From Candidatus Nanopusillus sp. (GTDB lineage Archaea; Nanobdellota; Nanobdellia; Nanobdellales; Nanobdellaceae), in assembly GCA_036845085.1 (NCBI GenBank), contig DAIUEN010000008.1:9788-19461 (forward strand): 9,674 nucleotides of DNA, given 5' to 3'. Shown one piece after another: positions 821-8,589 of the stretch (within the stretch, counting starts at the first letter, position 1; each line of letters starts with the position of its first letter). The position numbers were made by a program, and so were the translations under genes. The notes below the pieces were generated by a model. The model had not been told where the DNA came from and made no database searches. It was given only the letters and a program-made list of their open reading frames with translations.

Positions 821-1225
821 TTTTGTTATTAATTTTTTATTATATTCTTCTAATGCCTTCTGATATATATATTCAAGAATATTAATGATTAATGGATTTA
901 TTTTATACAACCTATCAGGATATACATTAATACTTGTTACAATTCCTTTCTTTTTATAAAATATTAACAAAGTTGTTGCTAAAATCTTAATATTATCATA
1001 TTTTGATAATAACACTAAAACTTCATCAAGATTTATTGGTCTAAATATGTCTGAATCTACATACAAGTATGTACCATACAAAGCTAAAAGATACAATATT
1101 GTTTTTCGATGTATTTTTTCGATCTTAGTTGTTTTTTTTAATAATCGTTTTATTTTCTGTTTGTTAGCATACTCAAAAACAATAGGAAAATTCTGATAAA
1201 ACTCCATAAATTTTTGGTTGGCCAT
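812..1225 (-). CDS. hypothetical protein, possible winged-helix DNA-binding regulator (137 aa)
   Basis: ORF track. The segment ...INLDEVLVLLSKYDNIKILATTLLIFYKKKGIVTSINVYPDRLYKIN fits a helix-turn-helix plus 'kkG-hydrophobic ... R-x-Y-x-hydrophobic' wing pattern typical of MarR/PadR-like wHTH proteins. It converges on and overlaps 263..820 by 9 nt. Confidence 0.65.
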   Translation of the reverse strand: MANQKFMEFYQNFPIVFEYANKQKIKRLLKKTTKIEKIHRKTILYLLALYGTYLYVDSDIFRPINLDEVLVLLSKYDNIKILATTLLIFYKKKGIVTSINVYPDRLYKINPLIINILEYIYQKALEEYNKKLITKSV

Positions 1226-1242
1226 ATTTGAAATAACTTATA

Positions 1243-1308
1243 TTATTTTTTAGCCTGTTCTTGTTTTTCTTTTTTACCCTTCTGTGATTGTGTTTTGCCT
1301 TTATCCAT
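1243..1308 (-). CDS. candidate leaderless micro-ORF, 21-aa Lys-rich peptide (MDKGKTQSQKGKKEKQEQAKK)
   Basis: Hand translation. The ATG complement is at 1306-1308 and TAA at 1243-1245. A minus-strand TATA ('ttttataag') lies at the same about -30 spacing used by the long genes. It could equally be a purine-rich 5' UTR of 812..1225. Confidence 0.25.
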   Translation of the reverse strand: MDKGKTQSQKGKKEKQEQAKK

Positions 1309-1330
1309 AATACAAACTATTATCTAAAAA

Positions 1331-1345
1331 TCTTATAAAATTTGT
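1331..1345 (-). promoter_or_regulatory. minus-strand TATA-like promoter for the 1308->812 transcription unit
   Basis: The reverse complement reads 'acaaattttataaga', followed by 23 nt and then the ATG at 1308. The 137-aa ORF itself has no TATA at correct spacing. Confidence 0.45.
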
Positions 1346-1370
1346 GTCTTGACTATAATATAATAACCCA

Positions 1371-1384
1371 AAAATCTTTTAAAT
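1371..1384 (+). promoter_or_regulatory. BRE/TATA-like promoter of the 1406..2615 operon (copy C of the extended promoter module)
   Basis: 'aaaatcttttaaat'. The 'c' at 1376 lies 30 nt before the ATG at 1406. The module TTTTAAATTTTTT-N4/5-AATAAAA-ATTAT is shared with 2622-2654 and 2972-3003. Confidence 0.6.
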
Positions 1385-1405
1385 TTTTTCGAATAATAAA
1401 AAATT

Positions 1406-1924
1406 ATGGAGGTCGAAACATACAAATGGCTAACTCCCAGAAAAATAAAGCAATATCTAAAAAGGCGGTCTGAGCTAATCTTTGAGCTAAGAGAAGTAAA
1501 CAGCAAACTAGAAGAGCCTCAGAAATTGCCAGAAAAAGTAAAAGAAGAATTAACTCAGAAAAAAAATCAGATTTTAGATGAACTAGGTACTATTAAAACA
1601 ATATTATTTGAGATTTTTCCATCACTAACAAGAGACATACATTATATAAAAGATAGATTAGGATACCAAATAAAAAAAGACGAAAAAGAAGGAAGAGAAG
1701 TAATAATAGGTGGTCCTTTTGTAAATGTAATAACCTCTCTAGAAGAAACAATGAATAAATTAGATGAAATATATTATAAACTAAATATGAATGGCTTAAA
1801 AACCGCAATCTATGAATTAACAAAAGAATTAGAAAAAATAATAGATTCATTATATAGAATAGATGACGAATTTACGGAAATAATAAAAATAGCTGAAGAT
1901 GTAGAATCTGAATTAAAAGTTTAA
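1406..1924 (+). CDS. hypothetical coiled-coil protein (172 aa)
   Basis: ORF track. Charged helical N-terminal half (ELREVNSKLEEPQKLPEKVKEELTQKKNQILDEL). Promoter at -30. The stop lies 1 nt before the next ATG. Confidence 0.8.
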   Translation: MEVETYKWLTPRKIKQYLKRRSELIFELREVNSKLEEPQKLPEKVKEELTQKKNQILDELGTIKTILFEIFPSLTRDIHYIKDRLGYQIKKDEKEGREVIIGGPFVNVITSLEETMNKLDEIYYKLNMNGLKTAIYELTKELEKIIDSLYRIDDEFTEIIKIAEDVESELKV

Positions 1925-1925
1925 A

Positions 1926-2615
1926 ATGGCAAGATATGTCGCTGAAGTAACTGCAATTACACCTTTATTAGCAGGGTTCTATAAAAAAGCGCATGATTTT
2001 AGACTATTTACAAAAATAGGCCTAGGTACATATTTAGTATTATATAAATCTAATAGTAAAAAATCTAGAGAATCTATAGAAACACTGCACAGAGAGGGAT
2101 ACTTAAGCAGAGATACAACAAATACAATATTAAAATTATTAACAGATGAAAATATTCCAATTCCAGAAGAAACTTATGAAAAAATAAAAGAATTATTATT
2201 AAAAGAAGGATTCAGTGATCTAGACTTTATATTTCCTAGAAACTTGAATAACTTAGAGATAGATTATCATAAATTATTATCAAGACCATTGTATACAGTA
2301 TTAAAATATCGTGGAGATTGGTTAGTTACTCAAATACTAGAAATAAGGCCAGTCAATGTACAGTTAGGAACATATGTAATGTATACATCAAATACTAAAT
2401 CTCCAATATTCTTCGAAACTATAGAACCAGGCTCAAAATTTATAATAGTATTTGAAGCAGAAAATCAAGGAAAAAATGAGTTTGAAGGTTTTATATTAAG
2501 ATTAAAAAAATATGGCAATGGTCATATATCAATAAAAGTATATCCATTAAATACTAACGAAAGTAATAATACAAGCAGAATAAATACAAAACCAAAAACT
2601 CATCATAAGCAATAA
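1926..2615 (+). CDS. hypothetical alpha/beta protein (229 aa) with weak RAMP-like end motifs
   Basis: ORF track. It is coupled to 1406..1924 by a 1-nt spacer. N-terminus is RYVAEVTAITPLLAG. The C-terminal part is ...ETIEPGSKFIIVFEAEN...FEGFILRLKKYGNGHISIKVYP (strand, helix, Gly-loop, strand). These are pattern resemblances only. Confidence 0.8.
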   Translation: MARYVAEVTAITPLLAGFYKKAHDFRLFTKIGLGTYLVLYKSNSKKSRESIETLHREGYLSRDTTNTILKLLTDENIPIPEETYEKIKELLLKEGFSDLDFIFPRNLNNLEIDYHKLLSRPLYTVLKYRGDWLVTQILEIRPVNVQLGTYVMYTSNTKSPIFFETIEPGSKFIIVFEAENQGKNEFEGFILRLKKYGNGHISIKVYPLNTNESNNTSRINTKPKTHHKQ

Positions 2616-2616
2616 G

Positions 2617-2640
2617 ATTATTTTTTAAATTTTTTGTTTT
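2617..2640 (+). terminator. oligo-T terminator for the 1406..2615 operon; also the T-rich TATA region of gap unit 1
   Basis: T6 (2621-2626), T6 (2630-2635) and T4 (2637-2640) lie immediately after the TAA at 2613-2615. Archaeal RNA polymerase terminates at T-runs. Confidence 0.55.
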
Positions 2641-2664
2641 AATAGAATATTATCATTTAATGAT
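2622..2664 (+). promoter_or_regulatory. gap unit 1: TATA-like box plus 4-5-4 palindrome at the predicted start site
   Basis: 'tttttaaat' is followed, 30 nt after position 2622, by ATCA-TTTAA-TGAT (2652-2664). No ATG occupies the start position. Confidence 0.5.
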
Positions 2665-2865
2665 CTATTCTATATATAATACCAAGTGTATTATAAAGAT
2701 CATCGAATTTCTACTTGGCTTTTATTGATTCTCTATATTTCATTCACATTATATAATGGCCAGCACTAACTGACATATATTAAACATGAAAACTAGGTTA
2801 TAATGCATTTCAAATAAATAATATTAGATGATATTTACCCTTTGCTTATTATCTTTTAAGCTTTT
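2652..2865 (+). ncRNA. candidate small RNA 1 (3' end uncertain: T4 at 2719-2722 or T4/T4 at 2854-2865)
   Basis: Predicted start is by analogy with the leaderless promoters. There is a 5' mini-hairpin and a larger imperfect hairpin at 2660-2703. No convincing ORF. Confidence 0.3.
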
Positions 2866-2895
2866 CATACATATACAATAGTATCCAACAGGGAT
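2853..2895 (+). promoter_or_regulatory. gap unit 2: TATA-like box plus 4-5-4 palindrome
   Basis: 'cttttaag' starts at 2853. Thirty nt later comes ATCC-AACAG-GGAT (2883-2895). The 'acaatag' between box and start resembles units 1 and 3. Confidence 0.45.
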
Positions 2896-2985
2896 TTAAT
2901 CTATAACAAATTGCCTATAATTATTTCTCAAGTGCATCTATTCTATTTGGAGTTGCATCTATATAATATCCTTTTTAAATTTTTT
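2883..2985 (+). ncRNA. candidate small RNA 2 (about 100 nt)
   Basis: Bounded by the unit 2 promoter and the T5/T6 runs at 2972-2985. No ATG anywhere in the interval on the + strand. Confidence 0.35.
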
Positions 2986-3013
2986 GTACAATAAAATATT
3001 ATCCGTCTAGGAT
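2971..3013 (+). promoter_or_regulatory. gap unit 3: TATA-like box plus 4-5-4 palindrome (copy B of the extended promoter module)
   Basis: 'ctttttaaattttttgtacaataaaatatt' is followed by ATCC-GTCTA-GGAT (3001-3013). About 29/33 identity to 2622-2654 by hand alignment with one indel. Confidence 0.5.
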
Positions 3014-3053
3014 TTAAGAATTTAGGATTCTACTTATCTGATTCTATTTTTTT
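3001..3053 (+). ncRNA. candidate small RNA 3 (about 50 nt)
   Basis: Predicted start at 3001 and a T7 run at 3047-3053. The 5' 18 nt (ATCCGTCTAGGATTTAAG) match 13/18 with the start of candidate RNA 2 (ATCCAACAGGGATTTAAT). Confidence 0.35.
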
Positions 3054-3087
3054 ATATACTTTAACATTTAACCAATTTGAACTGTAT

Positions 3088-3160
3088 ATCAATAACTATT
3101 TTTTATCAGTTATCTTAACTTTGGGGGTCAAAGTTCATTATAAATTAGATTTATTTTTTT
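3088..3160 (+). ncRNA. possible fourth small transcript with two hairpins
   Basis: Weak TATA-like 'ctttaaca' from 3059 and 'tatca' at 3087-3091. Stems are ATAACT/AGTTAT (3092-3097 / 3108-3113) and AACTTT/AAAGTT (3117-3122 / 3130-3135, loop GGGGGTC). T7 run at 3154-3160. An internal T6 (3099-3104) argues against it. Confidence 0.15.
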
Positions 3161-3208
3161 ACTTAGTATTAACATAATCAAAAGACTTAAAATATGTTGA
3201 TATACCAC

Positions 3209-3222
3209 AAGACTTATTTAAG
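3209..3222 (+). promoter_or_regulatory. TATA-like promoter of the recombinase gene, leaderless
   Basis: 'aagacttatttaag'. The 'c' at 3213 is 30 nt before the ATG at 3243. A near-duplicate 'aagacttaaaat' lies 27 nt upstream (3183-3194). Confidence 0.55.
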
Positions 3223-3242
3223 TTACTAATGCAATAATATAT

Positions 3243-3800
3243 ATGACAGTTGTATTAGGTAAATGGGATAGAGGCTTAGATTTTCTACAAGCAAGAGTAA
3301 CATTAGAGAATTTAATAAGATCACAAAGTAGTTATTTAACATCGATACTACCATCAACAAATAACAAAATGGGTATGGAATTTATATATTACAGTATAGC
3401 ATATGTACAATTATTAAATGGAGCAAGAATTACAGAAGCTATTGAAGCATTAAAATATTATGTAGATACCGGACAGATAACATTTAAACTAGAAGCAAAG
3501 AAAACAAAAGTACTCAGACCTTTCAAGATACCACCATTAATCCAAGTAAACAAAGTACTCTATAATATATACAAACCCATAATATTAAAAGCAAACAAAA
3601 AGATAGTTGTAGCATTCTTAAAAAATAGATTAGGCTGGAATTCTCATAGTTTAAGATATGCATTTATTAGATATGCAATAGAAAAAGGATATACTGCAGA
3701 ACAACTTGCAATAATTTTAGGTCACAAAAAATTAGATACTACATTAGGTTATGCAAGAAATATAGGTGCAGAAAAAATTTTAGATGATATGCAAGGATAA
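3243..3800 (+). CDS. int: tyrosine-type site-specific recombinase/integrase, catalytic domain only (185 aa)
   Basis: The canonical catalytic set is visible: Arg in LLNGARITEA (R62), HSLR box (H135, R138), LGH (H161) and nucleophile Tyr in TTLGYAR (Y170). Only about 45 aa precede the first catalytic Arg. Confidence 0.9.
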   Translation: MTVVLGKWDRGLDFLQARVTLENLIRSQSSYLTSILPSTNNKMGMEFIYYSIAYVQLLNGARITEAIEALKYYVDTGQITFKLEAKKTKVLRPFKIPPLIQVNKVLYNIYKPIILKANKKIVVAFLKNRLGWNSHSLRYAFIRYAIEKGYTAEQLAIILGHKKLDTTLGYARNIGAEKILDDMQG

Positions 3801-3844: not shown

Positions 3845-4249
3845 ATGACTAAACGAAAAAGGAGATGGTTCAAGAATATTTATTTTGAAACTAAAACTAA
3901 GAAAAGAGACTCTGTTTTTGCTGCGGTTCGAGATATAGGTCGAAAAGGAGTAAATAATGCTAAAGAAGTTGGTGCTTTGGCTTTTGCTCAATTATTAGAT
4001 TATCTTGATAAGAAAACAGCTAATCATTATGGTGAAAAAATAAGATTTACTGATACTCTTTGGAGAAAAAGAACAAGAGTCTTATATTTTTTATCAAATA
4101 AATTTGGTGGAAAATCTTATGTAAAATTAGCTCAAAAATTAAAACAAAGTTATGATTCTGGAAAAATTACAGCTAATGAGATAATAAATAAAATAAAAAA
4201 TATTGTACGGGCTGATAAATTACCTCTAATAAAAATAAAGAAAATATGA
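3845..4249 (+). CDS. hypothetical basic protein (134 aa), possibly nucleic-acid binding
   Basis: ORF track. K/R-rich N-terminus (MTKRKRRWFK) and many K/R throughout. Its TGA overlaps the next ATG (ATGA at 4246-4249), implying translational coupling. Confidence 0.75.
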   Translation: MTKRKRRWFKNIYFETKTKKRDSVFAAVRDIGRKGVNNAKEVGALAFAQLLDYLDKKTANHYGEKIRFTDTLWRKRTRVLYFLSNKFGGKSYVKLAQKLKQSYDSGKITANEIINKIKNIVRADKLPLIKIKKI

Positions 4250-7200
4250 TCATTCCTTTGATTTCAGATCCAACAAAAGTATTAAATGCTGCTAAAGAAG
4301 CTGCTAATAAAATAGCAAGTACTATTGCAACACAAGTATCTAATCTAACTAAAAAAGATTCACCAACAACACCACAAAATATTTCTAATATAGGATACAC
4401 TCGTATGCCAACATCTAGTAATATTTCAATAGGATACACTCCTGCTCCAAATAGAGAAAATCCACCAGTAACTTCTATAAATAATGTTGCAACAAATATT
4501 CCATCTACACCATCTCCTCCTGTAACAAATACTAGAGTTGTAACAAATATTTCACCTACACCAACTCCTCCCGTAACTAATACAGTAACAGCTCCTCCTA
4601 TAACAAATACTAGACCAGATACAGTTAATATACCTGATAGAACAACTTCTATATCTTCTGTAACAAATATTTCATCTACACCATCTCCTTCAATAATAAA
4701 TACTAGTACTAAACCTACTACAGATTATATGGATCTAAATAAATTAGATCAAGAAATATCTAAAAGAGTATGGGATGAATACTTTAGACAACAAAGAGAA
4801 CTTGATGAATGGTATAAAAGTTCTATGAGACAATTAGAAGAACAAGAAAAAGAAATTAATAAATTATATGATACATATAAAAAATCAATTGAAAATTATT
4901 ATCGTGGATTTAAAGAAGAACTAAGAAGGGCTTATATAGATTATCTTTATAGAGAGCGTTATGATCCTATTACTGCTACTAAAAGAATACATCAAATATG
5001 GGCTTTAGATAAAGAAATTATTAAAGATCTAGAAAAACTTGAAAATTGGAGAGCTAGTGCACTATCTGAGATACAAAAAGCCAGGGAACAAATACAAGCT
5101 CAATACAGACTAGGAAGAGAAAGTATTAATCAATGGTTGAACTCTACAACAAGATCTTTAAGAGCTCAATACGAACCATTATTTAAAGCACAAGAATTAA
5201 ATAAAGAACTAACAGACTTATATAAAAAATATCAAGAAGGTTTAATAAGTGATGCTGAATTTATAAAAGAAGTAAAATCTATTATAAATAAAGCTAATAA
5301 ATACGGCCTTGATACATCAGAACTAGACAAAAGTATTGGACTCTATGAATATGTATCCAAAGTAAATCAATCTATCTCTTATTATTTAGATCTATTTAGT
5401 AAGGGACAGATATCTTATCCAGACCTACAAAGAACATTAATAGCATATGAAAGAGAATTTATACAAAAAGGTTTAGATCCATCACCAATAACTAATCTAC
5501 GAACACAAATATATCTATTGCATCATGCCGTAGACTATGATCCTAATACATATACTGTTACATTATATGATCCATCATTAAATATTTTGACAAAAGTGAG
5601 CCTCAACAGAGATTATAGATTTTTACCACAAGAGATTAGAAATTATTTACACGAACAACTACAACGAAAAATACAACAAATACAACCATATTTACCTAAA
5701 GATGCAAAAATTACTGGAATAGATGAATATGGAATGATAAAATATGAAATACCACAAATACCGAATCCATATGAATTAATAGGAGGATATACTTCAAAAC
5801 CATCAACTAAAGATAATCTACAACAATTATATACTCCAATACCACAAGATATGTTATTAAGTATAAAAAGTGGTAATATCACTTATTCAAATAATCAAGA
5901 TCGATTTTTAAATTTTATAAACGCTGCAGATAAAGTTCTAAGTAGTTATTATAATCTTTTTGTTAATTTACCTATACCTTCACCTTTTTATGGTTTTCAT
6001 TCATTTGATCCAATAACAAAACAATTTAAACAAGGCGCAGCAGAGGGTATAAAAGATCTTATTATTTCTATACCTACACTAGGTTATCTAGGATATAAAA
6101 CAACTATAGATCCAAACTTTAGAGGTCAAATTAGAGAATCTCTAAGAAATGCTACACTTTCGGATGCATTTAGTATGATAGTAAGTCCTATCAAAGAAGC
6201 ATTTGAAGTAAGTCCAGCTTATGGAGCTGGTTACTTAGCATCTTATTTTATTCCAATACCAATAAAAGCTCCAAAGATATCTGCAAACATTAAGACTATC
6301 AAAATAAATATACCTGAATCAACAATATTGAACCTTGCTATAAAAGATCCAAATATAATGAAATCTATAAACACAAGAATATCTGTTATACAAAATCTAG
6401 AAAAAGAAATCGAATCTTTAAATAAATTTAAACTTCCTACTATCTTTGGAGAACTTGGTACGGATATTAAACTTACACCTAAAAATTATTTAGAATTATC
6501 AAAAATAACAACACAAGAATTAGTAAAACCTACAACTCGAGAATTATTAGCAATAACATCTAATATAATAAATCCAAAACTTTTAGATCTAGCAATTATA
6601 GGTCCTCCTATTATAAAAAGATACAAAATACCTGAATTTTTAAGTGAGTTGAGTCCTATATTAGGTCCTAAATTACATTTAGAATTACAACTAAATAATG
6701 TTAAAAAAATATTTGCTGCCACACCAATGAGATTTGTATATCATAACAAAGAATTAACATTTTCATATAAACCATATTCAATAATTTCTTTTGCATTAAA
6801 ACCAGAACACGGATTATTTAAAGACAAATATATAATATTTACAAGATCTCTAGAAGACTTTTACAAAACTAAAGCAACTGTTGATTCATTAACAATACCT
6901 CTAAAAAATAAAATATATGTACATTATTTAAATGTAGTTGAAAGAAACAAAAATGCACAAATCAAAAACATAATTCCAGGAAAAGCATATACTATAATTT
7001 TAGAGAAAAAAAGAAATGTATCAAAAGCAATAACATATATAAGACTAAAAAATGGTAGAGAATTACTAAGTTTTGATATAATAAAAGGAAAAAATGCATA
7101 TAGTGTTGCTGTATCTACTAGAGTAACTCCTGAAGGTTTACAAAAATTCGCAGAGATAGTATCAAAATACATATCGCCAAGAAACAGAAGCAAACTTGAT

Positions 7201-7863: not shown

Positions 7864-7892
7864 AAATTGCTCATTAAGAATACTTTTAAAAT

Positions 7893-7979
7893 AAAAACTA
7901 CGAATATTATTTCTAATTTAAAATTATTTATATCAAAAACTACTAAAAAATCTAAAAAATCAATAAAATAAAAAACTAC
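7893..7979 (+). repeat. three direct copies of AAAAACTAC plus tandem CTAAAAAAT x2 in an A-tract-rich upstream region
   Basis: AAAAACTAC occurs at 7893-7901, 7935-7943 and 7971-7979. CTAAAAAAT occurs at 7943-7951 and 7952-7960. Confidence 0.6.
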
Positions 7980-8016
7980 AATAATAAATAAAAAAAATCA
8001 CAAAATTCAAAAAAAG

Positions 8017-8030
8017 CAAAGATTAATATT
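8017..8030 (+). promoter_or_regulatory. TATA-like promoter of the 4-TM capsid-like gene
   Basis: In 'aaagattaatatt', 'ttaatatt' starts at 8023, 30 nt before the ATG at 8053. The 'aaagatt' prefix is shared with the 8612 promoter. Confidence 0.5.
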
Positions 8031-8052
8031 TGAGTTCACAAAAAAATATAGT

Positions 8053-8589
8053 ATGGCCAACGACATTAACGCAATAATTAGAACAGCAATAAGTATAGGA
8101 ATAGCAATAGTATTATTTGCAGTAATATTAATGCAATTTGCAATACCTGTAATGCTTAGCCAATTAGATGCATTAAATACCCTTATTAGTCAAAATCAGA
8201 ATTTACAATCAGTATCAACAGCAATAGATACAACTCGATTACTAGTAAGAGATTTATTACCAATATTGATATTATTCGCAGTAACAATATTACCTCCAGT
8301 AGCTTTATTTATAAAAACAAGATCTTTTGGAACTGAAAACTTTGCAAACAAACTCGTAGCTACTACAATTGGAGTTTCTATAGCATTATTTGTAATTGCT
8401 ATACTATACATGGGAATGGCTCTACCAATATTATTCCAAAGCAACCTTTCATCTACAGTATTAAGCTTAGCAGTATATGGTTCTCTATTATTAGTATTAG
8501 CTACAGCCTTAATACCATCAGGATTATTAACATTCTCTGAACTAAAGAATTATGAAAGAAGGAGACAGCCTCCAATTAGGCTAATCTAG
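8053..8589 (+). CDS. four-TM hydrophobic protein (178 aa); candidate tandem-fused spindle-virus (VP1-like) major capsid protein
   Basis: There are four about 25-aa hydrophobic helices arranged as two hairpins. Helix 1 and helix 3 align (NAIIRTAISIGIAIVLFAVILMQFAIPVML vs NKLVATTIGVSIALFVIAILYMGMALPILF). Hairpin 1 resembles the fusellovirus VP1 pattern as I recall it. Confidence 0.85.
   Translation: MANDINAIIRTAISIGIAIVLFAVILMQFAIPVMLSQLDALNTLISQNQNLQSVSTAIDTTRLLVRDLLPILILFAVTILPPVALFIKTRSFGTENFANKLVATTIGVSIALFVIAILYMGMALPILFQSNLSSTVLSLAVYGSLLLVLATALIPSGLLTFSELKNYERRRQPPIRLI

Follow-up and report, generated by a model that had tools for sequence, protein, structure and literature searches.

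The gap upstream of the integrase gene

The window analyzed here, a 9,674-nt stretch of an archaeal contig (25% G+C) whose source is probably a thermophile, has between a 229-aa gene and the gene of a short integrase a gap of ~627 nt (2616-3242) in which neither strand carries an ATG, GTG or TTG open reading frame longer than 27 residues. In three public copies of the contig, too, none of the gene callers used had placed a gene there, in agreement with a first-pass annotation of this DNA that had seen no ORF in a gap of 630 bp. No other non-coding stretch of the element is as long as the gap, which also has the element's lowest G+C (22%). The accompanying statement that all other spacers measure 1-60 nt was incorrect, as spacers of 180 nt (1226-1405) and 189 nt (7864-8052) are found elsewhere in the window. 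Among four near-identical contigs we saw no SNP in the gap; since the flanking region 1188-2616 was SNP-free as well, this carries no gap-specific information.

Searches for near and distant DNA relatives of the window among 50,697 phage records found none, and a 1205-aa protein of the element had no match in the same records. Scans of IMG/VR returned only distant integrases for the integrase and nothing for the 229-aa protein. Both the 229-aa protein and the 134-aa protein encoded after the integrase were orphans in a 5.8-billion-protein index, and so no relative reveals the region downstream of a 229-aa gene. Judged by its sequence, ORF 3243-3800 is a member of the tyrosine-recombinase family: in the family alignment the catalytic residues R62, H135, R138 and H161 never vary and Y170 almost never does, and the family profile matches the integrase chains 5dor/5c6k, the HP1 integrase 1aih and the XerC-like recombinase 4a8e. 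The 134-aa protein had no family match in Pfam or phrog and accompanies the integrase in one relative or more. Single-sequence structure models of this protein (pLDDT 61) and of a 137-aa protein (pLDDT 40) were too poor for searching, and an earlier suggestion that the 137-aa protein is a wHTH found no support in Pfam or phrog. The coordinates of the features discussed below are collected in Table 1.

Table 1. Features in and around the gap, in window coordinates.
Feature	Coordinates	Strand	Remarks
Reference cassette, BRE/TATA of the 172-aa gene (CCAAAAATC TTTTAAAT ... ATTATG)	1374..1407	+	ATG at 1406
Unit 1: cassette copy (-31 to +2), then dyad ATCA-TTTAA-TGAT (2652-2664)	2620..2664	+	PWM 98.6-99.7th percentile
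T6-AAA-T6, right after the stop of the 229-aa gene	2621..2635	+	also the TATA-like box of unit 1
Unit 2: weaker TATA-like box CTTTTAAGC, dyad ATCC-AACAG-GGAT (2883-2895), TTAA	2853..2899	+	PWM 96-99th percentile
Unit 3: cassette copy, dyad ATCC-GTCTA-GGAT (3001-3013), TTAA	2969..3017	+	PWM 98.8-99.9th percentile
T7 run, first of three oligo-T tracts before the integrase promoter	3047..3053	+	other tracts at 3099-3104 and 3154-3160
Conserved dyad TTAACTTTG-GGGGT-CAAAGTTCA	3115..3137		kept in relatives, upstream of integrase
Integrase BRE/TATA, palindromic ACTTA-TT-TAAGT	3212..3223	+	-31 to -20 of the ATG
185-aa tyrosine recombinase, catalytic domain only	3243..3800	+	PF00589 E=1e-4; phrog_9208 'integrase' E=4e-30
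134-aa basic, all-helical protein	3845..4249	+	53% identical to the post-integrase gene in L017

Promoter copies and oligo-T tracts in the left part of the gap

The first-pass annotation had described the left part of the gap as three T-rich TATA-like boxes, each lying 30 nt before a palindrome, and this geometry is as stated, with the sequences and positions of the three dyads exact. It had counted nine protein genes that share the 30-nt spacing; the shared geometry held, while our count came to seven window protein genes with the TATA box at -29 to -22 and the ATG at +1. Units 1-3 match these seven genes in the position of a TTTTAAAT-like box (-29 to -22) and in T|A at -1/+1. The likeness goes further for units 1 and 3, which have ~33 nt (-31 to +2) in common with the promoter of the 172-aa gene starting at 1406: over 34 nt, the copies at 2620-2653 and 2969-3002 have 76-79% identity to the reference cassette (1374-1407), and the ATG of the 172-aa gene aligns to the ATC of the units. 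The alignment score of unit 3 with the gene-1406 promoter was 40 (shuffle maximum 29) and with unit 1 it was 44 (shuffle maximum 39). Units 2 and 3 are additionally alike over +1 to +17, bearing out a likeness past the stem that had already been pointed out, and are 78% identical over 27 nt with an alignment score of 35 (shuffle maximum 31). The description of the units as paralogous was thus right for units 1/3 and 2/3, which resemble each other beyond chance, but not for units 1 and 2 (p=0.24) or for the downstream bodies, whose likeness was not significant (p about 0.10-0.15). What is repeated is a promoter, not a product.

The PWM scores of the units fall within the leave-one-out range of real gene promoters, on a PWM that is itself weak (its top 2% of positions amounts to nearly 400 window sites). 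The real + strand promoters here have CMAAAAAMC ahead of the TATA box, whereas the BRE position of the units reads ATTATT, TATTAT and ATATCC on the + side, with CAAAAAA on the minus side. Given the real-promoter spacing and the two near-copies of the 1406 promoter, transcription starts on the + strand near 2652, 2883 and 3001 are plausible. The palindromes, whose conservation in homologous elements had been an expectation of the first-pass annotation, are not kept in the loci compared: an HMM of the units run against all fetched loci found the three units only, and 11 related loci contained no copies. A match of 2626-2650 to L013 was a low-complexity coincidence that falls within a coding region. 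We also rejected a mini-CRISPR array on account of low repeat identity, the best direct repeats in the gap (45 nt at 71%, spaced 349 nt; 27 nt at 78%, spaced 118 nt) being promoter sequence.

All three units have ATCM-N5-KGAT at +1, a pattern absent from the protein-gene promoters. ATCCN5GGAT occurred twice in 14.9 kb versus 0.08 expected, and the relaxed form ATCMN5KGAT occurred five times versus 1.4 expected, a count reached by 3 of 200 shuffles. The 4-5-4 shape as such is common: the window holds 86 perfect palindromes of this geometry, with 12 of them in the gap.

Runs of T are a further feature of the region, the + strand of the gap having seven T5+ runs and no A5+ run, the reverse of the bias in the + strand genes (13 T5+ versus 73 A5+ in 7860 nt). 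The T6-AAA-T6 that follows the 229-aa gene is a probable oligo-T terminator of the 172/229-aa operon (a T5/T6 pair is also present downstream of gene 8053-8589), and the three tracts between unit 3 and the integrase promoter are candidate archaeal terminators. From the oligo-T positions, any RNAs from the units are predicted to be at most short, about 50, 90 and 320 nt. For unit 1 an RNA of ~210 nt ending in T-runs at 2854-2865 had been proposed; these, however, are two T4 runs, and since there is no T5+ run between 2636 and 2971 a unit 1 RNA would be ~320 nt long.

The dyad and promoter of the integrase gene

The conserved dyad at 3115-3137, which falls inside what the first-pass annotation called a weak fourth unit, can alternatively be viewed as 8-bp inverted arms flanking a G-rich asymmetric center of 7 bp. 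In four lineages its distance upstream of the integrase ATG is 115-119 nt, the relatives' integrases being 46-60% identical to that of the window. Besides the window, the carriers are L010/L011 (46%), L016 (51%, with a degenerate right arm) and L017 (60%), the contig of which starts within the dyad. The L010 dyad has perfect 9-bp arms (TTAACTTTG-GGGAT-CAAAGTTAA), the dyad is absent from L048, and the L012 contig stops just short of its position. None of 200 shuffles contained a match to the 19-mer of the dyad. The integrase TATA is likewise shared: each of the six aligned relatives has ACTT unchanged, the surrounding RACTTAWWTAAGTT pattern is largely common to them, and the dyad and this TATA are kept across integrases that are 46-64% identical. 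Relatives' contigs that extend far enough show that the integrase is preceded by a spacer of only ~160-170 nt; this spacer starts at the dyad and is without the units. As a hint of a possible recombination junction, five of five short relative contigs end 40-134 nt upstream of the integrase, one of them inside the dyad.

By its form and its conservation beside the gene, the dyad is probably a core-type site of the neighboring tyrosine recombinase; alternatively, it may serve the integrase as an operator. L006 and L010 each have a single copy of it, and no partner site (attB, attL/attR) or junction was found: scans of genome, viral and metagenome collections with the dyad gave only chance hits in unrelated bacteria or hits to the same contig, and neither L006 nor L013 showed att repeats derived from a tRNA. 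The first-pass annotation had listed operators, an origin or att sites as further possibilities for the gap, and these came nearer than its small RNAs in that the one conserved element is a recombinase-type dyad.

Interpretation and comparison with known systems

Our leading explanation, which we hold tentatively, is that the gap, which lies upstream of the integrase of a bicaudavirus-like element, is a non-coding spacer for control and termination, built of orphan promoter copies and consisting of two parts. The right part (~3100-3242) would be a module that travels with the integrase and comprises its BRE/TATA and, ~117 nt from the ATG, the 23-bp dyad, whose inverted arms around a G-rich asymmetric center would most likely be a DNA site of recombinase action. 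The left part (2617 to ~3100) would be lineage-specific and composed of three same-direction copies of the 172/229-aa operon promoter, i.e., leaderless-type cassettes in which the ATG appears swapped for ATC plus a 4-bp dyad with no ORF after it. These orphan copies may share their TBP/TFB with the 1406 promoter, and perhaps a regulator as well, and would at most give rise to short, U-rich, unstructured non-coding transcripts of the three lengths predicted above. The seven + strand oligo-T tracts would end the unit transcripts, and any read-through out of the upstream operon, ahead of the integrase promoter, and the +1 dyad, if relevant, would act on DNA (as an operator or initiator region) and not as an RNA hairpin. 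Of this picture, the repeats, their likeness to a real gene promoter, the missing coding and RNA-structure signals, the kept dyad and integrase promoter and the strand bias of the T-runs are observed, while promoter activity and its direction, termination, operator function and the action of the recombinase on the dyad are inferred. Several points count against this explanation: the units are without the A-run BRE of the real + strand promoters, the gap has a composition like that of minus-strand sense sequence, the absence of the units from relatives leaves no comparative handle on selection, no partner of the dyad was found, and a spacer serving termination only need not be 627 nt long.

The gap may have no present function at all, being neutral debris, next to a recombination-prone site, of duplications of the 1406-type promoter whose genes were later lost, an account that we find somewhat unlikely. 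It agrees with a region that is lineage-specific and missing from every relative examined, with unit bodies that are unrelated, with a unit 2 that is already a degraded copy, and with structure, coding and motif signals of which none was found. Debris is harder to reconcile with an exact 30-nt geometry and an ATC-plus-dyad start kept in three of three copies, and 0.5 kb of junk is usually purged from compact viral genomes. In addition, a tblastn search of 609 ORFs (element plus relatives) against the gap gave nothing credible and no pseudogene trace, and the four near-identical copies have no SNP in the gap, though their neighboring genes are equally SNP-free. Composition raises instead the possibility that the minus strand is the functional one. 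Read on the + strand, the gap (purine fraction 0.441, T 0.431, 7 T5+ and 0 A5+ runs) is nearly identical in these measures to the minus-strand gene 821-1225 read the same way (purine 0.440, T 0.437, 6 T5+ and 1 A5+), and a minus-strand RNA across the gap would meet no oligo-T terminator. The unit TATA boxes are quasi-symmetric, and read on the minus strand they have equal or higher PWM scores (e.g., 6.3 at minus 2949 and 4.5 at plus 3001) as well as an A-run BRE (ACAAAAAA TTTAAAAA) typical of real promoters here, so leftward non-coding transcripts might start near 2949, 2829 and 2600 and be partly antisense to the 3' end of the 229-aa gene. We nevertheless regard this as unlikely: the homology to the 1406 promoter runs from TATA to ATG/ATC in the + direction, no minus-strand ORF in the gap exceeds 31 codons, and the lack of A5+ runs is only weakly unexpected, base composition leading us to estimate ~2.

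The model of the first-pass annotation, in which three paralogous genes encode small RNAs that each have a selected 5' hairpin, is quite improbable in our judgment, even though the promoter geometry fits it, oligo-T tracts follow units 2 and 3, and the dyad pattern is mildly enriched. In one stem pair both bases differ between unit 1 and units 2/3 (C->A with G->T), which had been taken as selected pairing; it is, however, a single event in three copies, and at local composition we estimate that a random base pair is complementary ~1 time in 3. The 4-5-4 hairpins have energies of +0.5, -2.0 and -2.9 kcal/mol at 37 C and no longer form at 60-80 C, the units fold no better than shuffled sequence (z-scores -0.26 to -1.40), and in units 1 and 2 the MFE fold does not include the hairpin. 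Rfam 15 gave no match on the window at E<=1 and, on the gap at E<=10, two chance-level matches (17.8 and 11 bits versus gathering values of 37 and 46); ARAGORN found no tRNA; and box C/D motifs, sought by eye with up to one mismatch, were not found. The G+C of the units is 22-30% versus 71% in host tRNA-Ser, with no G+C-rich island, and an RNA-duplex test against the 5' ends of the window mRNAs showed no excess complementarity (p=0.15-0.57). Along with bodies that are not homologous and relatives that are without the units, these results argue against small-RNA genes with a selected hairpin. Were the units to encode unstructured promoter-driven small RNAs of a new class, in a bicaudavirus-like provirus of a very low-G+C thermophilic archaeon, possibly a DPANN or Nanoarchaeota-type host, the cassette and the +1 dyad might place them under the same control as the 172/229-aa operon, and they might govern the integrase or the lysogeny switch, but we consider this distinctly unlikely. 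A replication or transcription-primed origin would suit an A+T-rich ORF-free region that is the element's largest non-coding and lowest-G+C stretch, with tandem promoters and an adjoining recombinase gene; the primary origin of phage T7 has tandem promoters, and in STSV1 a long repeat-rich low-G+C region has been proposed as an origin. Such a role is very improbable here, with no k-mer or iteron enriched beyond a first-order Markov null, no ORB-like inverted repeat apart from the dyad, no skew switch at the gap, no replication or initiator protein recognizable by Pfam or phrog, and relatives that manage with ~160 nt at this position. Unannotated micro-proteins are barely credible. One candidate is the 22-aa ATG ORF at 2660-2728, in keeping with an earlier scan that found none above 22 codons on the + strand; its ATG sits 8 nt after the unit 1 +1. 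The predicted +1 of unit 3 opens, with ATC, a 58-codon stop-free frame within a 60-codon one (2995-3174, + strand); the latter, though, is without a start codon, has no homologue among 1.84 billion representative proteins, and crosses the T7 terminator-like tract and also the dyad, which is non-coding in relatives. By our estimate ~0.5 frames of 60 codons are expected by chance in the gap, and no frame is common to the three units. A conserved coding frame across the gap in relatives, which the first-pass annotation had named as incompatible with its model, was found neither by tblastn nor in the search with the 60-codon frame.

Should the units fire, they would join a small number of non-coding transcription units so far described from archaeal virus-like elements and would offer a handle on the silencing of a bicaudavirus-type integrase. 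The more usable result is the conserved dyad, a testable recombination-site candidate for a family of short tyrosine recombinases conserved in large tailed spindle viruses. The region also illustrates how a promoter-plus-palindrome pattern can mimic a gene family in 75% A+T DNA when the promoter alone repeats.

Like archaeal BRE/TATA leaderless promoters, the units have a TATA octamer at -29 to -22 and a purine start after a pyrimidine at the position of the genes' ATG; unlike them, they are without an ORF and have the A-rich BRE on the minus side, not the + side. With known small-RNA classes they share a fixed-distance promoter and a short ORF-less unit ending in oligo-T, and they differ from the Rfam, C/D-box, tRNA and mini-CRISPR classes in having no covariance-model match, no tRNA, repeats that are 71-78% alike and no G+C-rich core. 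In SSV1, the T5, T6, Tind and Tlys promoters all contain an 11-nt site recognized by F55 (PMC9608457), which by analogy may serve as a precedent for a repeated operator. The SSV1 control region, a regulatory hub of an integrating spindle-type virus, would resemble the gap in that a short sequence is repeated at close promoters, but SSV1 has 11-nt direct repeats, an RHH protein and coding transcripts, whereas here a 4-5-4 dyad lies at +1 and nothing is encoded downstream.

Among the Bicaudaviridae, the integrases of STSV1 (ORF56), STSV2, ATV, SMV1 and ATSV are 33-38% identical to that of the window over 94% of the protein, and some are equally short (annotated lengths are ~163 aa for STSV1 ORF56 and 242 aa for SMV1 and ATSV). 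All of these matches are annotated or noted as integrase, the ATSV note reading 'conserved large spindle virus protein', and a very large protein gene near the integrase is a further likeness. On the other side, no other window gene matches those viruses, the host context differs, G+C is 25% here versus 31-40% in three virus excerpts (L050-L052), and neither the units nor the dyad were found upstream of the STSV1 or SMV1 integrases. The core sites of tyrosine recombinases such as loxP, dif and the attP core consist of inverted arms around a short asymmetric center. The dyad at 3115-3137 differs from them in its short arms (8-9 bp) and in that no partner site or junction was found, and it is like them in having inverted arms around a 5-7 bp asymmetric center, in being single-copy and in being co-conserved with the adjoining recombinase gene.

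Promoter copies in the gap

The three T-rich, TATA-like boxes and the 4-5-4 dyads that follow them (units 1 to 3) lay exactly where the first-pass annotation had placed them, in a gap upstream of the integrase gene that contained no ATG, GTG, or TTG ORF of more than 27 residues on either strand. The claimed 30-nt geometry was also real, as in seven genes of the window the ATG (+1) is preceded by a TTTWAWWW box at -29 to -22, a spacing expected for archaeal leaderless mRNAs. Other details of that description did not stand: the remaining spacers are not uniformly short (two more measure 180 nt and 189 nt), and the supposed T-runs at 2854-2865 are T4 runs only, T5+ runs being absent from 2636 to 2971. 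The 4-5-4 dyads do exist, but the pattern is common, with 86 perfect palindromes in the window and 12 in the gap.

Alignments showed that ~33 nt are common to unit 1, unit 3, and p1406, the promoter of the 172-aa gene that opens the 172/229-aa operon, with the ATG of this gene falling on the ATC of the units' ATCC/ATCA. Scores were above the shuffle maximum for units 1 and 3 (44, maximum 39), unit 3 and p1406 (40, maximum 29), and units 2 and 3 (35, maximum 31); unit 1 and p1406 scored 33 (p=0.003), and units 1 and 2 scored 23 (p=0.24). The proposed likeness of units 2 and 3 after the stem was borne out over +1 to +17 (ATCC-N5-GGATTTAA). Since it ends by +17 and the unit bodies further downstream are not significantly similar (p=0.10-0.15), what is repeated is, judging from these alignments, a promoter cassette with a short start region and not a family of products. 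By a PWM trained on 10 gene promoters of the contig, which is not specific, the units scored within the leave-one-out range of real promoters (96th-99.9th percentile of all positions); the A-run BRE of real + strand promoters here is missing from them. We conclude that the feature does exist, as orphan copies of a promoter lying in non-coding sequence 5' of a bicaudavirus-type integrase.

The p1406 region is itself nearly palindromic (AAAAATC-TTTTAAAT-TTTTTC) and has a high minus-strand promoter score (PWM 10.1, start near 1353); it lies in a divergent region shared with the 137-aa gene.

RNA, coding, and origin tests

The units had been read as paralogous genes for hairpin small RNAs; this reading was unsupported, all RNA tests that we ran being negative. 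Rfam searches found nothing in the window at E<=1 and only two chance-level matches in the gap at E<=10, and ARAGORN found no tRNA. The predicted transcripts folded no better than shuffles (z -0.26 to -1.40), and neither unit 1 nor unit 2 used the 4-5-4 hairpin in its MFE fold. Hairpin energies at 37 C were +0.5, -2.0, and -2.9 kcal/mol, and the hairpins are unstable at 60-80 C. The "compensatory" stem change is present, but it is a single event among three copies. A structured RNA in this organism should appear as a G+C-rich island; G+C is 71% in the contig's tRNA and 22% in the gap, where all 40-nt windows are at or below 37.5%. Complementarity of the units to the 5' ends of window mRNAs showed no excess.

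The longest stop-free frame in the gap (60 codons) opens at the unit 3 ATC, lacks a start codon, and had no homologue among 1.84 billion representative proteins. The gap gave no sign of iterons, as none of its k-mers exceeded a Markov null.

The integrase and a conserved upstream dyad

Nearly all window proteins are orphans; the exception is the 185-aa ORF, a tyrosine recombinase consisting of the catalytic domain only. It matched PF00589 and phrog_9208 (E=4e-30), its family profile matched solved integrase and Xer catalytic domains, and in the family alignment R62, H135, R138, and H161 were invariant and Y170 nearly so. Integrase homologues in the protein index had 46-64% identity. Just 3' of the integrase gene is that of a 134-aa basic helical protein, 53% identical to one at the same position in L017, which may be an integrase partner, e.g., a directionality or DNA-binding factor; neither a family match nor a confident fold was found for it.

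In L010 and L016, the relatives with enough sequence, the spacer upstream of the integrase is only ~160-170 nt, and nothing similar to the three units was seen in any of 11 related loci. The palindromic BRE/TATA of the integrase (ACTTA-TT-TAAGT) was conserved in six relatives. Several lineages also retain a 23-bp dyad, TTAACTTTG-GGGRT-CAAAGTTMA, with its centre 115-119 nt 5' of the integrase ATG. The dyad-bearing lineages have integrases only 46-60% identical. The dyad is single-copy in L006 (a near-identical contig) and L010, and the 14.9 kb of L006 contain just two occurrences of GGGGG. The centre of the dyad is asymmetric and conserved, as would be expected of a site for protein binding or recombination more than of a hairpin loop; taken as 8-bp arms and a 7-bp centre, the dyad has the layout of core-type tyrosine-recombinase sites such as loxP, dif, and attP cores. 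All five short relative contigs with close integrase homologues (L012, L017, L047, L048, and L049) end 40-134 nt upstream of the integrase, always their shorter flank, and L017 begins inside the dyad. Assemblies break in this way where flanking sequence varies within a population, and these ends suggest that the flanks vary there in the populations. A partner site was sought in genome, viral, and metagenome collections, with chance hits only, and no tRNA-derived att repeats were found. From its single copy, conserved asymmetric centre, arm layout, and the contig ends, we infer that the dyad is probably the recombinase's DNA site, as a candidate core site. In L013 (integrase 35% identical), a tRNA-Thr(GGU) directly precedes six copies of GTTAATAAC/GTTATTAAC, after which come element genes; GTTAAC-type repeats also lie upstream of the integrase in L016, L010, and L047.

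The window (contig G+C 25%) is matched at 99.5% identity by L006, a 30.7-kb ENA metagenome contig, and at 99.4-99.6% by two JGI contigs of ~9.5 kb each. To the right of the window, L006 has, in order, genes for a DUF2341 protein, an SNase-family nuclease, tRNA-Ser(CGA), a class-Ib aminoacyl-tRNA synthetase, TruD, and a translin-like protein. Because of these cellular-type genes the element seems to reside in, or to adjoin, the genome of an archaeal cell; its ends were not located. The tRNA-Ser has 70.6% G+C and, since G+C of structural RNAs is linked to growth temperature, this points to a thermophilic host. The 1205-aa gene contains imperfect tandem repeats of ~48 nt in its N-terminal part, encoding a Pro/Thr/Ser-rich segment (VTNIS-TP-PP), beyond which the sequence is coiled-coil-like over a long stretch. 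L010 and L013 also have a large ORF close to the integrase (802 aa and 865 aa, respectively), with no detectable sequence homology.

Coordinates of features in the window and in related sequences
Feature	Sequence	Coordinates	Remark
Region of promoter p1406	window	1340-1407	ATG at 1406
Invariant block	window	1188-3247
Gap	window	2616-3242
Unit 1 dyad	window	2652-2664
Unit 2 dyad	window	2883-2895
Unit 3 dyad	window	3001-3013
Longest stop-free frame	window	2995-3174
Conserved dyad	window	3115-3137
Conserved dyad	L006	4224-4246
Conserved dyad	L010	808-830	also L011
Conserved dyad	L017	1-15
Conserved dyad	L016	about 649-671	degenerate form
Integrase gene	window	3243-3800	+ strand
134-aa protein gene	window	3845-4249
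134-aa protein homologue	L017	712-1101
Tandem repeats, 1205-aa gene	window	4488-4706
Second ORF-free spacer	window	7864-8052	189 nt
Variable patch, 178-aa gene	window	8155-8249
Window counterpart	L006	1110-10783
Cellular-type genes	L006	10765-14909
tRNA-Ser(CGA)	L006	12250-12334	minus strand
tRNA-Thr(GGU) and repeats	L013	3302-3520
Gene-free stretch	SMV1 (L051)	2147-2775	~630 nt
C4/G4-centred dyad	STSV1 (L050)	2879-2891

Accounts of the gap and known systems

Our best account, offered tentatively, is that the gap would be a control and terminator spacer. Its left, lineage-specific part would hold promoter copies emitting at most short unstructured transcripts, and the right, conserved part would contain the DNA on which the recombinase probably acts. 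In + strand reading, purines make up a fraction of 0.441 of the gap and T 0.431, with seven T5+ runs and no A5+ run; a T6-AAA-T6 directly follows the 229-aa stop codon, and three further T runs occur in the interval from unit 3 to the integrase promoter. This bias fits a + strand terminator-rich spacer or minus-strand transcription, a serious rival that we consider quite improbable. In its favour, gap composition mirrors that of + strand genes and is nearly that of 821-1225, a minus-strand gene, when this is likewise read on the + strand; the unit TATA boxes read on the minus strand (ACAAAAAA TTTAAAAA) also score equally or better by PWM, because they are nearly symmetric. The second ORF-free spacer has the opposite bias (57% A, eight A5+ runs, no T5+ run).

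That the gap is neutral debris is another serious rival, which we regard as unlikely; a tblastn search of the gap with 609 ORFs (element, relatives, and three bicaudaviruses) revealed no trace of a pseudogene. None of 77 variable sites among four near-identical contigs falls in a 2.06-kb block that runs from the divergent promoters through the genes for the 172-aa and 229-aa proteins and the gap to the integrase start codon. Because it also spans two genes, its invariance is no proof of constraint on the gap itself; the block may reflect a recent sweep or a recombination tract. Elsewhere, 20 variable sites within 95 nt, common to L006 and L008 and not L007, are clustered in the gene of a predicted multi-pass membrane protein, forming a patch that is either hypervariable or recombined.

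Under the control-spacer account, one regulator might act on both the promoter copies and the 1406 operon; SSV1 offers an analogy, in that F55 sites recur across its T5, T6, Tind, and Tlys promoters (PMC9608457). The window's integrase shares 33-38% identity with those of large tailed spindle viruses (STSV1/2, ATV, SMV1, and ATSV). SMV1, as annotated, likewise has a gene-free stretch upstream of its integrase, in which inspection by eye noticed no sequence or repeat similarity to the gap. In STSV1, the dyad GTGA-ACCCC-TCAC precedes the integrase's probable GTG start by ~86 nt; it may have arisen by chance or be distantly equivalent to the conserved dyad of the window.
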